Of a stretch of DNA of 64,000 bases, positions 16,004 to 57,469 are shown in pieces. Origin of the DNA: Chiloscyllium plagiosum (taxonomy: Eukaryota); contig NC_057718.1 of assembly GCF_004010195.1 (NCBI RefSeq), positions 43,983,809-44,047,808 on the forward strand. Direction: 5' to 3'. Position 1 is the first letter of the stretch, and each line of letters starts with the position of its first letter. Below the pieces are notes generated by a model. It saw only the letters and a list, made by a program, of their open reading frames with translations. It made no database searches and was not told the DNA's origin. Made by a program: the position numbers and the translations under genes.

Positions 16004-16874
16004 GTGGTTGTGGAGTACATGATTGTCAATTGTGTACTCCACAACCACCCGATGAAGGAGCAGCACTTCGAAAGCTAGTGCTACCAATCAAACCTGCTGA
16101 ACTATAACCTGGTATTGTGTCATTTTTAACTTTTTTACAGACCGCAATTTCCCTTCCCACGTGGTTCAAGATGCCCTCCAACACATCTCATCCACATCCT
16201 GCATCTCCGCCCTCAGACCCCACCCCTCCAACCGTAACAAGGACAGAACGTCCCTGGTGCTCACCTTCCACCCTACCAACCTACACATAAACCAAATCAT
16301 CTGCCGACATTTCCGCCACCTCCAAACGGACCCCACCACCAGGGATATATTTCCCTCCCCACCCCATTCCGCCTTCCGCAAAGACTGTTCCCTCCGTGAC
16401 TACCTGGTCAAGTCCACGCTCCCCTACAACCCAGCCTCCCGTCCTGGCACCTTCCCCTGCCACTGCAGGAATTGCAAAACCTGCACCCACACCTCCTCCC
16501 ACACCTCCATCCAAAGGCCCTAAAGGAGCCTTCCACATCCATCAAAGTTTTACCTGCACATCCACCAATATTATTTATTGTATCCGTTGCTCCCAATGCG
16601 GTCTCCTCTACATTGGGGAGACTGGACGCTTCCTAGAAGAGCACTTTAGGGAACATCTCTGGGACACCCGCACCAATCAACCACACCGCCCTGTGGCCCA
16701 ACACTTCAACTCCCCCTCCCACTCTGCCGAGGACATGGAGGTCCCCTCCCCCACTCACCTATTGTACTCTATGCTATTTTCTCCCCACCCCTACCCTCCT
16801 CTCATTTATCTCTCCACTCTTCAGGCACTCTGCCTGTAGTCCTGATGAAGGGCTTTTGCCCGAAACATCAATTT

Positions 16875-18004
16875 AGAACAAACAGCCCTACCAACCATCA
16901 AACCAAAAATCTGGGTCCGCTACATAGATGGCACTTTTGTCATCACAAAATGAAACAAGATAGAAGAGACATTTAACATCATCAACAACACCCTGACAGG
17001 CATAAATTTCACCAAGGAGGAAGAAACCGACAACAAACTTGCCTTCCTGGACGTCACAGTCGAAAGAAAGGACAACGGAGAACCACAAACCTGCGTATAC
17101 AGAAAACGAACAAATACTAACCAAATACTTAACTACACCAACAACCATCCCAACACACACAAACGAAGCTGTATCAGAACACAATTCCAACGAGCCACCA
17201 CACACTGCAGCACAGACGAACTTCGGAAAACTGAGGAGAACCACCTATACAACGTATCCAAGAAGAACGGATACTCAAAAACACAGTGCACAGATTCCTC
17301 AAGAACAAACCACGACAAGCAGACCACCCACAGCCAGACACCCTAACCACCTTACCATGCATCAAAGAAGTTTCAGAAATGACAGCCAGACTACTAAGAC
17401 CCCTCGGAATCCTGGTAGCACACAAACCCACCAACACTCTCAAACAAAAACTAACAAACTTAAAAGACCCAGTACAACCCATGGACAAAACCAACGTAAT
17501 CTACAAAGTTCCATGCAATGACTGCCACAAACACTACGTAGGACAAACAGGAAGAAAGTTAGCCACCAGGATACATGAACACCAGCTAGCCACAAAAAGA
17601 CACGACCCTCTCTCCCTCGTAGCCCTACACACGGATGAAAAAACCCATCAATTCGACAGGGACAACACATTTATCCTGGGACTGGCTAAGCAAAGATATG
17701 CCAGAGAATTCTTAGAGGCCTGGCACTCCAACCACAATGCCATAAACAAACGCATAGATCTAGATGCCATCTATCAACCCCTCAGAAAACGAACAGGAAA
17801 TGACATCACCACAAACCCCAGGAACCCCATCCAGGAGAAAGATATAAATAGAAAGCAGGAGACAACAGCTTCGCTTCACTTGGAGGTTGCCACTGATGAT
17901 GTTACCTAGCCAAGTAATGAAACGTCTGGATATCAAACCTACAGCTCAGCGAGCAAACCTACACCCTAAACCTCAACTTGAGCTACAAACCTTCACAAAC
18001 CTTG
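16875..18004 (+). mobile_element. Penelope-like element B (RT C-terminus plus GIY-YIG), innermost insertion
   Basis: KIWVRYIDGTF (RT YxDD region), LAFLDV and NVIYKVPCNDCHKHYVGQTGRKLATRIHEH; contains a stop and a frameshift. TSD CATC(A/G)ATTT at 16866-16874 and 18005-18013. Confidence 0.92.
17889..17930 (+). ncRNA. Minimal hammerhead ribozyme motif of Penelope element B
   Basis: CTGATGA-T-GTTAC-ctagccaa-GTAAT-GAAAC-GTC. Confidence 0.65.
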
Positions 18005-22583: not shown

Positions 22584-22734
22584 CTCCAGATGGTGTGCTG
22601 CCTCCAAGGCTCTCATCTGCCACTTCGACCAGTCTTCAGGTTGCCTGGTCTACACCAGCTCGTAACAATGCTCCAGGCTTGCCCATTTACCAGCTTCAGA
22701 CAAGGCTGCTACATTCCTTTGGTGAAATTTCAGA
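22584..22734 (+). pseudogene. USH2A: USH2A exon 39 equivalent (151 bp, open frame)
   Basis: Acceptor ctcgacAG, then (A)PDGVLPPRLSSATSTSLQVAWSTPARNNAPGLPIYQLQTRLLHSFGEIS, then donor GTACAT. Nearly identical to human APDGVLPPRLSSATPTSLQVVWSTPARNNAPGSPRYQLQ (recalled). Confidence 0.95.
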
Positions 22735-23130
22735 GTACATATTGTGAAGACTGTTTTAACTATCAATTTTATTTAAACAATTGGAGTTACATTTTTGCTG
22801 TTTGACATTAAAACGAGGTTTGTTTTGTTTTCTACAAATTCCATTAAATGTACAAGTTTGCAACAGGAGCAGGCCATTTAGCCCCTTTGAACCTGCTCCA
22901 CCAGTCAATAAAACCATGGCTGATCTGATTACTCAGCATTCCTACCAAATTCCAATAACCTTTCATCCCCTTGCTTTACACAAATCTGAGAAAAAAATCT
23001 TCTTCATCTGTGAGGACAATGCGTTTTTTAAAATATTGACCTCTTATTTCCTCTTGTCCCACAGAAGAAACTTTCTTTTCCTCATGGACACAGTCAAGAC
23101 TTCTCAGCATCTCATATGTTCCAATCAAGT

Positions 23131-26483: not shown

Positions 26484-26626
26484 CTTATTGCTCAATCCAC
26501 CAACAGCCTTTAGCTATTTAGCAACTGGTCTTCATCTATATGCAGCCCATGAGTTCAGACTGGTTACTTCCAATGGACATGGTCATACCATCAGAGACAG
26601 GACACAGATGGCTACCTCAGAAGATA
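26484..26626 (+). pseudogene. USH2A: USH2A exon 40 equivalent (143 bp, open frame, diverged)
   Basis: Acceptor cattttcAG-like, LLLNPPTAFSYLATGLHLYAAHEFRLVTSNGHGHTIRDRTQMATSED, donor GTAAGT. Aligns to human LFSNPSASLSYEVSDLQPYTEYMFRLVASNGFGSAHSSWIPFMTAED (recalled). Confidence 0.9.
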
Positions 26627-55495: not shown

Positions 55496-56026
55496 ATCAG
55501 AACCTGTGTTCCAAACTACAATAAAGGGAACAATTATTATAGCAACAGAAATTATTGGAGAAAACTCAGGAGGTCTGGCTGCATTTGTGGAGAGAAAGCA
55601 GAATTAATATGTTGAGACTGTGACCCTTTTTCAGATCTTTTTGTTTCTGCATCTGCAGTACTTTGTTTTATCATCTAAGATCATTCTTTAGATTCCTGGA
55701 TATACCAGTGGAGAAAGTATTTGAGTTTGTTAATACACAATATCATCGAATTATATGAAATAAGTCTACATCTAGTCTTTCCAAGACACAGATGTCACGC
55801 CAATACTATCAGGAGAACCTGCAAACATTTATTAGCAATTACTTGAGAGACAATGATTTACTCACCGGCTTAATCACCAGTTATAGAGCCGGTCATGTAT
55901 TGGCTCTCTTTATAGAAGATTGGAATATAGGAATGTAGAGGAATAGCCAAACATGTAATGAAATTCAGCCTTTTGTTTTGCTTTCAAAATAGTCTTGTAT
56001 CATTTTGTCTTCTTTTGAACTTCCAG

Positions 56027-56236
56027 AACAAAGTGGATCCACCTCTTCTGCTGAATATCAGATCTCAAAACCTGTTATTGGTATGGGAACAGTGTAATGG
56101 TTACATTACTCAGTACCAAATTTATTAGGATGGTTTCAGGCTGGCCACATTACCAAGCTGCATTACAGCTATTCTCTGAACTATCTACATGCATACTCTG
56201 TGCATGTTTTCCAAGTGGAAAGTTGTACAACAGCAG
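56027..56236 (+). pseudogene. USH2A: USH2A exon 41 equivalent, 5' piece
   Basis: Acceptor ttccAG. Reads VDPPLLLNIRSQNLLLVWEQCNGYITQYQIY*DGFRLATLPSCIT, then after a frameshift SYSLNYLHAYSVHVFQVESCTTAG. TAG at 56126-56128, shift near 56167. Confidence 0.92.
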
Positions 56237-56484
56237 GGACATAAATTTAAGGTGAAGGGTGGAAGGTATAGGGGAGATGTCAGGGGTGGGTTCTTTACCC
56301 AGAGAGTGGTGGGGGCATGGAATGCGCTGCCTGTGGGAGTGGTAGAGTCAGAATCTTTGGTGACATTTAAGTGGCAATTGGATAGGTACATGGATGGGTG
56401 CTTAAGCTAGGACAAATGTTCGGCACAACATCGTGGGCCGAAGGGCCTGTTCTGTACTGTATTGTTCTATGTTCTATGTTCTAT
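56237..56484 (+). mobile_element. 5'-truncated CR1/HER1 LINE 3' end inserted inside USH2A exon 41
   Basis: CR1 ORF2 C-terminus GHKFKVKGGRYRGDVRGGFFTQRVVGAWNALP, 3' UTR GGGCCGAAGGGCCTGTT and (GTTCTAT)n tail. Splits the Gly codon G|GA. Confidence 0.92.
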
Positions 56485-56767
56485 GATGTTCTCTGTCACC
56501 AGAGTCGCACCTGGTTCAAAGAATTCAGAGAGCTCCTGAGAATATTTCTGATCCAGAACTTTATTCAGGCACTCCAATTTCTGTGCTTATATCATGGAAT
56601 CCCTCAGCCTTTCCCAATGGTATTATTGATAGCATATTAATGGAGATGAAAGTTAAGGGGACAGAAGAGATTTTTACCTTCATAATTGAAATTTTGGACA
56701 GCCACTGAGATATGTCGATAATTCTGTGAGCCTAAACCCTTGGATTGCATATAAAAATAGGATTCTG
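56485..56767 (+). pseudogene. USH2A: USH2A exon 41 equivalent, middle piece
   Basis: CSLSPESHLVQRIQRAPENISDPELYSGTPISVLISWNPSAFPNGIIDSILMEMKVKGTEEIFTF..., then a frameshift (TGA 56706-56708 in the first frame) to QPLRYVDNSVSLNPWIAYKNRIL. Confidence 0.93.
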
Positions 56768-56926
56768 GATCAATGGTGCTGGAAGAGCACAGCAGTTCAG
56801 GCAGCATCGAGGAGCTTCAGCGGACAAGTCCGGACAAGTCAAGGGGACTGGAAGTTTGAAACTAGGATGAGGTGGGGGAAGGGGAAATGAGGAAGCTGTT
56901 GAAGTCCACATTGATGCCCTGGGGTT
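56768..56926 (-). mobile_element. Composite Penelope-derived fragment inserted inside USH2A exon 41
   Basis: Starts with the reverse complement of the Penelope terminal repeat seen at about 18020-18072 and contains a CGGACAAGTC tandem duplication. Lies between exon codons RIL and VST. Confidence 0.8.
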
Positions 56927-57044
56927 GTAAGCACTGTCAGTGGTGGAACAAATAGCAATGCTTGCAATGAAGGACCACAGGCCTTCAAGACCAGCTGCAG
57001 TGCAGCCACCACGAATCCAGGTTCTGAGTCCAAATTCAGTTGAC
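56927..57044 (+). pseudogene. USH2A: USH2A exon 41 equivalent, 3' piece
   Basis: VSTVSGGTNSNACNE, frameshift, RPSRPAAVQPPRIQVLSPNSVD, then phase-0 donor GTAATT at 57045. Confidence 0.92.
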
Positions 57045-57469
57045 GTAATTAATTCAAATTTATTTCAGCACATTTATTTTAACCACAGGAAGAGTTGCGC
57101 ACAGCTTGCTTATGTCTTTTGGTTTAAAATTTTTAGATGTTTATTTGAGGAAAATGGTATGAAGAAATGCTAAATATTTTACAATTAAGTATCCATTTAT
57201 GTCGAATTATTATTTACTGAGGCAAATATCCACAGTAAACGATGCTAATTATTTCAGATAACATGCATGTGCTGTGTATTCAGAGCAGATTTTGCTGACA
57301 CTGTTCATCAGGAACAAACTTCACGCAGAGGAGGGTTGGACACAGAACGTAAAGTCTCAACATAGTCTTAGTTTTTATAGGGATTTTCTGAGAGGCAGAA
57401 GTGAACTTGTTTCTTCATCATGCACAGATTAGAGAAAGCATTTGTAATAAAGTGGGCTGTCATGTTAAA

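Follow-up and report, generated by a model that had tools for sequence, protein, structure and literature searches.

In the shark Chiloscyllium plagiosum the single gene encoding usherin, USH2A, is very probably an old unitary pseudogene, the coding exons of which drift neutrally. The gene was recognized in a window of 64,000 nt (C9:43983809-44047808 of a 3.56-Gb assembly of 101,977 contigs; positions given without a contig name are those of the window), in which a focal exon, spanning positions 56027-57044, carries one stop codon, four frameshifting deletions, a 9-nt deletion and two transposons. It had been predicted from this exon that the animal is a natural knockout for the long isoform. 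The prediction is sustained by the finding that 14 of 21 exons are disabled, that no other copy of the gene was found, and that the protein has changed at an accelerated rate. As judged from the sequence, full-length usherin (isoform b) could no longer be made.

The DNA read consisted of the window, the 200 kb downstream of it (264 kb in total, including 5,353 N in six gaps) and locus L002. Three chondrichthyan usherins, which are models of genes rather than proven proteins, served as references: that of the cloudy catshark Scyliorhinus torazame (P0001), partial and 1,583 aa long, usherin isoform X1 of the sawshark Pristiophorus japonicus (P0019), and the usherin of the elephant fish Callorhinchus milii (P0004). 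Lesions in the focal exon were called by frameshift-aware protein-to-DNA alignment to the three references. The 21 exons were aligned to P0001 and, independently, to P0004. Searches of the whole genome with proteins used a stricter first-pass filter.

The focal exon

The region 56027-57044 aligns to the usherins of catshark (residues 98-307 of P0001), sawshark and elephant fish, and these alignments bear out the proposal of a usherin FN3 exon with intact AG and GT ends. The longest open piece of the region (56487-56705, 73 aa) matches P0001 with 65% identity and 97% coverage (3 proteins passed out of 59 candidates). P0001 in turn retrieves named usherins, among them P0004 (70% identical), P0019 (84%) and those of tetrapods, teleosts and invertebrates (65 passed out of 2,622 candidates); the usherins in its match list range from those of molluscs, annelids and echinoderms to those of mammals. 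The orthologous catshark residues 107-181 make up one of the 12 Pfam fn3 stretches in P0001. The features of the gene located in the window are the following.

22586..22743, + strand: upstream USH2A exon (P0001 residues 1-52), open frame, lesion-free, 85% identity to P0001; acceptor cgacag/, donor /gtgaag
26485..26626, + strand: next USH2A exon (P0001 residues 51-98), open frame, lesion-free, 64% identity; donor A/gtaagt, the last base beginning the split codon K98
56027..56236, + strand: focal exon, native piece 1, 210 nt; 5-nt deletion, 9-nt deletion, TAG, 1-nt deletion
56126..56128, + strand: TAG in frame, at a codon that is Q in catshark, sawshark and elephant fish; covered without differences by X1 and X5 contigs
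56237..56484, + strand: transposon insertion 1 of 248 nt, a retroposon of a young family, with (GTTCTAT)n as its tail; not present in organism B
56485..56762, + strand: focal exon, native piece 2 of 278 nt, with 1 nt deleted at about 56688-56695
56763..56926, + strand: transposon insertion 2 of 164 nt, belonging to a very young repeat; the copy has an internal deletion and replaces about 5 native nt
56927..57044, + strand: focal exon, native piece 3 of 118 nt, with 2 nt deleted at about 56963-56972; GT of the donor at 57045-57046

The acceptor is kept at 56026/56027 (cttccag/AAC), and the donor at 57044/57045 (GAC/gtaatt). The preceding exon ends in A/gtaagt, A being the first base of codon K98, and the following exon starts at ttctttgcag/GTT ACT TGG, GTT corresponding to V308. 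Because the flanking exons fix the boundaries at K98 and V308, the ancestral exon is set at 629 nt, that is 2 nt of codon K98 plus codons 99-307 (2 + 209 x 3, in catshark coordinates and with conserved splice sites). Human exon 41, its putative counterpart, has the same length.

The lesions in piece 1 are, in order, a 5-nt deletion near 56029-56033, a deletion of three codons (HPS, 9 nt) between 56089 and 56090, directly before QCNG, the TAG triplet, and a 1-nt deletion at about 56159-56169. The stop codon and the loss of three codons before CNG had both been anticipated. The frameshifts placed near 56029, 56167, about 56670-56698 and about 56972 correspond to deletions of 5, 1, 1 and 2 nt, respectively. 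The lengths of the native pieces needed revision. Pieces of 210 and 118 nt stand as proposed; the middle one, put at 283 nt, measures 278 nt, and the total is 606 rather than 611 nt, as established by the empty site found in organism B (see below). The remaining 5 nt belong to insert 2, the first five letters of which happen to mimic the lost native codons. Similarly, the ancestral length of 629 nt is upheld by the catshark protein and the splice sites, but the 18 bp obtained by summing the deletions are not the full difference: 606 nt equals 629 nt minus 5, 9, 1, 1 and 2 nt and a further 5 nt, the place of which has been taken by insert 2.

Contigs of the same and of related species

Four sets of assembled contigs, not of raw reads, were compared with the window. 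X1 and X5 are from the same species (organism A), X5 deriving from another study and another sample than X1. X12 is from organism B and X15 from organism C. Organism B contigs contain 35% of the 31-letter words of the stretch, which corresponds to a divergence of about 3%; in organism C only small shares of the stretch are present.

X1 contigs cover 55800-56264 (record 1) and 56461-56786 (record 7) with no differences, and 56900-57300 (record 8) with one. X5 contigs cover 56046-56203 (record 24) with no differences, and 56464-56697 (record 29) and 56901-57300 (record 30) with none or one. Altogether, four of the six organism A pieces are identical to the window, two differ at one intronic position (57048), and none has gaps. 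Every small lesion is reproduced in organism A contigs, the site of the 5-nt deletion lying outside the X5 coverage. At 57048, where A stands in the assembly, G is found in all three DNA runs, two of them from the same species; this is probably a base error of the assembly or a private variant.

A single contig of organism B (X12 record 9, 1,693 nt) lies on 55800-56236, 56485-56762 and 56927-57300, at adjacent record coordinates. It joins 56236 directly to 56485, and thus provides the empty site of insert 1; at the site of insert 2 it runs from 56762 through CCTA to 56927. Behind 56033 organism B has the letters ACCAA, giving K-Q-G-P-M-D-P-P as in the references. Since ACCAA restores the reference peptide, the 5-nt deletion in organism A is proven. 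Organism B has no gaps in pieces 2 and 3, at the 9-nt site and at 56168, and the 9-nt deletion and the three small frameshifting deletions are therefore shared by the two species. Organism B also has lesions of its own, namely a 17-nt deletion at 56140 and, at 56125, a T>G change by which TAT becomes TAG. Shared lesions in the focal exon number five or six, and private ones two or three.

The lesions are real, and not errors of the assembly, as had been surmised from their variety: contigs of two studies agree, and a second species shares the small deletions. As a control, a giant FN3 frame of 5,734 codons on C7 is open in the same assembly, five of its loci over their whole 3.7-3.9 kb. The frame (C7:43017919-43049840; loci L016, L020, L022, L025, L027, L029) is rich in FN3 and paralogous to usherin.

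It may be argued that lesions are artefacts of assembly or sequencing, or that they mark a collapsed or duplicated dead copy, the good one having escaped assembly. The large number of contigs, the gaps in the locus, the finding of a 5' exon on an unplaced contig and the stricter first-pass search all speak for this view. It is nevertheless very improbable. The lesions recur in the contigs of two studies of the same species and, in part, in those of a second one, the extra lesions and clean empty sites of which are impossible as artefacts of this genome. The long C7 frame is open in the same assembly, the 210-nt piece of the focal exon occurs once in the genome, and no uninterrupted version of the exon was found among organism A contigs in the four runs compared. 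The 5' exon mentioned is found on a small contig (C96568:17790-17999, - strand), matches residues 18-87 of a sawshark query with 61% identity, and has no counterpart on C9; the USH2A locus is therefore not fully assembled.

Both inserts are dispersed repeats, as had been proposed, and both have their empty sites in the one organism B contig. At least 1018 candidate copies of insert 1 are found in the genome, and 39 other scored copies are 96-99% identical to it over the full length; eight other, older matches lie within the 264 kb read. The overlap at its target site is at most 1-3 nt (G/GGA...GA). Judged by its translation, insert 1 may contain the 3' end of a long interspersed nuclear element. 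Insert 2 has at least 2108 candidate copies, and 24 copies are 100% identical to it over 107 nt (query 54-160). In other copies the sequence corresponding to query 1-54 stands about 196 nt away; insert 2, which belongs to a very young family, has therefore suffered an internal deletion. It swapped out about 5 nt, rather than duplicating a target site. As organism B lacks both, the transposon insertions are late events, and not the cause of the gene loss.

Contigs of organism C (X15, a run presumed to be RNA) also cover the insert-2 family. This repeat may be active at present, possibly transcribed, and common to several species. X15 contigs cover transposon parts of the stretch only (11 of 30 bins), and are no evidence on USH2A expression either way; no run recorded as RNA was listed for the stretch. 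In some organism A and B contigs from elsewhere, a tail like that of insert 1 (56476-56485) is joined directly to a head like that of insert 2 (56761-56776), the short sides measuring 20-29 nt. Possibly the two repeats belong to one composite element, or are often neighbours. Oddly, in the window they flank 278 nt of exon; their adjacency was not found within the 264 kb read.

The rest of the gene and the age of its loss

P0001 matches 18 places on C9, 16 of which, with 49-88% identity, are collinear over C9:44.006-44.250 Mb. Its 10 matches off C9 are all at 25-34% identity. Matches outside the locus are of the level expected of paralogues, reaching 54% for laminin-like sequences retrieved by 5' queries, with the exception of the C96568 exon. 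An intact copy elsewhere in the genome, which would have refuted the prediction, was looked for, and no second USH2A copy was found in the 3.56-Gb assembly.

Stops or frameshifts are present in 14 of the 21 exons (C, D, E, F, I, K, L, M, N, O, R, S, T, U), and seven (A, B, G, H, J, Pq, Q) are lesion-free; the alignments to P0001 and P0004 agree on both sets. By comparison with P0001, 16 frameshifts and 10 stops were counted, and 14 frameshifts and 11 stops by comparison with P0004, plus in each case one frameshift in exon U. Each of the three stop codons occurs among the lesions, as do +1 and -1/-2 shifts; the disabled exons are spread over 245 kb, and the switches of frame are independently visible in the high-scoring segment pairs of tblastn. 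No exon corresponding to catshark residues 459-515 could be located in the interval 80006-86772, which contains a 13-N gap and gave only noise scores of 33-37; one expected exon appears to be lost. A further upstream exon was sought in the window at 1-22580, and no match was better than E = 0.14. At the end of exon K (contig 146412-146451, C9:44130220-44130259) the 3' end is replaced by a (TGTG/GT)n microsatellite, translated as CVCVCVCV.

The intact AG and GT ends of the focal and of several other exons would suit a gene still used by skipping the broken exons, or by recoding (stop read-through, programmed frameshifts). This is hardly credible, as the ancestral focal exon, 629 nt long, is not a multiple of 3, lesions of all the types listed affect 14 exons over 245 kb, and the protein has evolved three times faster than in the sister lineage.

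The acceleration is evident from a 10-row maximum-likelihood tree of the read-through translation, in which breaks were written as X. The topology is (elephant fish,(sawshark,(window genome, catshark))), with support of 99/96 for window genome plus catshark, and of 100/100 for both the shark and the chondrichthyan clade. The terminal branch measures 0.36 for the window genome and 0.098 for catshark, being 3.7 times longer in the former; the sawshark values are 0.053+0.037. Unique replacements number 167 in the window genome versus 56 in catshark when sawshark is the outgroup (chi-square 55), and 246 versus 83 when the outgroup is elephant fish (chi-square 81). Over readable codons, the window genome is 70% identical in amino acids to catshark, 71% to sawshark and 61% to elephant fish, catshark and sawshark being 83% identical to each other. 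The usherin of the window lineage has evolved about three times faster than that of its sister. In catshark, sawshark and elephant fish the models run through the focal exon without gaps or stops, and without acceleration. Because the catshark and sawshark models are uninterrupted here and show normal rates, the loss of USH2A is not elasmobranch-wide.

A stop results from about 4% of single-base changes in sense codons and, by our own arithmetic, 10 stops in 4.2 kb correspond to a neutral divergence of about 5% since inactivation. On account of about 10 stops in 1,403 codons, and of the ratio of shared to private lesions, the inactivation would be roughly 2.5-3 times as old as the split of organisms A and B.

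The 5' part of the gene, which is common to the short isoform, was searched for with a bird short isoform (P0069) and with 753 residues of sawshark usherin, comprising LamNT and laminin-EGF repeats. By both queries, collinear exons were located at C9:43.413-43.633 Mb. Three matches in a row (43595506-631, 43595649-6029 and 43596023-6157; query 423-464, 470-596 and 595-638) lie in three different frames in one stretch of 652 nt. As no room is left for introns, one large EGF-Lam exon would have two frameshifts. The same frame-switch signature at L018/L002 is a frameshift verified by alignment in exon U. The identity to sawshark ranges from 49 to 90%, and is about 65%, weighted by length, over 11 C9 matches; sawshark and bird are 63% identical. 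Stops listed inside the 5' match tables were rejected as evidence, such stops being intron edges in the readable exons.

From these match coordinates, the 5' part is probably dead too. It might still be that only the long isoform is dead, and that the 5' exons encode a secreted short usherin (isoform a, about 1,550 residues), in which case the gene would be truncated and not lost. Every lesion read in the sequence falls in the part specific to the long isoform, two 5' exons match sawshark at 85% and 90%, and the stops listed in 5' matches are unreliable. A surviving short isoform is however unlikely: three matches in three frames without intron room point to two frameshifts in one EGF-Lam exon, and an identity to sawshark as low as that between sawshark and bird is found in what is normally the best conserved part. 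That usherin is completely lost in this galeomorph shark lineage, short isoform included, that the loss is several times older than the A/B split, and that a whole genus or family consists of knockouts, is a reading which we favour by a small measure.

Several observations weigh against the conclusion that USH2A is a dead gene. A Pfam scan of three open fragments of the focal exon (47-73 aa), at E <= 0.01, found no families, and fn3 was not reached. Seven of the 21 exons are clean; with about 27 lesions in 1,403 aligned codons chance would leave about one third of such exons clean, as is seen, yet this agreement with random decay is no proof of non-function. The assembly is fragmented and gapped and, given the stricter first-pass search, an unassembled copy is conceivable. 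The lesions are supported by assembled contigs, those of organism A reaching 21-28 nt into the inserts, under the 31-nt bridging rule, and none extending 31 nt or more into the transposons; X1, in addition, may be the sample of the assembly itself. Organism B has 14 substitutions in piece 1, two of which are not listed, making its retention of the TAG at 56126-56128 uncertain. Finally, the lesions were read at the sequence level in the part between the 5' third and the last 1,100 codons or so, and the short isoform may function.

A pseudogene of this age would have the following history. Selection on USH2A of this galeomorph shark would have ceased well before the split from a relative about 3% divergent. 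The coding exons would then have drifted neutrally, accumulating in-frame deletions and small frameshifting indels as well as stops, and one exon was apparently lost. After the split, the focal exon underwent the 5-nt deletion and the two retroposon insertions in this lineage, and acquired a stop and a 17-nt deletion of its own in the relative. In these sharks the role that usherin plays in ankle links and in the periciliary complex of other vertebrates would be dispensable, or would have been taken over by something else.

As for the surroundings of the gene, some 200 kb ahead of the first USH2A match two halves of a nuclear-receptor zinc-finger domain were found, at C9:43210224 and 43212606. 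They may belong to ESRRG, which adjoins USH2A (PMC7617844), and their position would suit this neighbourhood.

In the window, the intervals 16291-16839 and 17235-17909 (+ strand) are open frames of 182 and 224 aa with a motif of the type ...IYCIRCSQCGLLYIGETGR...EH / ...IYKVPCNDCHKHYVGQTGR...EH. The motif may be akin to that of the GIY-YIG endonuclease encoded by Penelope-like retroelements; a Pfam scan of the two frames gave no match. The region has 48% GC and a strong strand skew. Pfam found no families in the seven window ORFs (open reading frames) of at least 150 aa, and Tandem Repeats Finder, run on the window at score 150, reported nothing.

Usherin loss and known systems

USH2A is the most common gene of Usher syndrome and of recessive retinitis pigmentosa. 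Unitary pseudogenes of lineage-specific type are well known; the gene and the animal make this one interesting. A long usherin-free vertebrate lineage is a natural experiment, by which it can be asked whether ankle links and the periciliary complex are required, and what compensates for them. The partners of usherin are ADGRV1, whirlin and PDZD7, and their decay or persistence after its loss could be followed. Close terms of comparison are at hand in catshark and sawshark, which keep the gene, and shared and private lesions are characters for mapping the loss on the shark tree. Should the complete loss prove true, the USH2 complex, conserved from invertebrates to mammals, would be dispensable or would have been rebuilt, possibly with changes in ADGRV1, WHRN or PDZD7. 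A genome scan for Calx-beta (PF03160) gave 15 matches, including a stop-free cluster of four at C2:47.54-47.75 Mb, none being assignable to ADGRV1 without sequence.

An earlier report of USH2A loss in elasmobranchs, mentioned in the original prediction, did not surface: no report of such a loss in sharks, rays or chimaeras was found in a full-text search, the scope of which does not extend to supplements and most subscription journals.

The condition described is similar to USH2A loss in humans (Usher syndrome type 2A, retinitis pigmentosa) and in the Ush2a knockout mouse, the phenotype of which was reportedly described by Liu et al. in PNAS in 2007, in that the long transmembrane isoform would not be makeable and truncating lesions fall in FN3 exons. 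In contrast to the human and mouse cases, here the loss is fixed in a wild species, common to a second one, and old, with at least 27 lesions in 21 exons. The shark carriers are free-living, presumed to see and hear, and the gene is not a disease allele.

Sensory genes have been lost in cartilaginous fishes before, as shown by the lineage-specific loss of short-wave opsins (PMC12361510) and of olfactory receptors (PMC10116579). All are sensory genes lost within chondrichthyans. Opsins and olfactory receptors are however receptor genes, the loss of which fits a changed sensory ecology, whereas usherin has a structural part in the ankle links of hair cells and in the photoreceptor periciliary complex. 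Nearest in the literature are two amino-acid replacements in Ush2a of the blind cavefish Sinocyclocheilus anshuiensis (PMC4698820). There too a natural change in the gene is discussed along with altered senses, but the cavefish gene is not a pseudogene. The intact chondrichthyan usherins P0001, P0019 and P0004 have orthologous exons in the same order and with the same splice phases; these, unlike the gene described here, are uninterrupted and have evolved more slowly.

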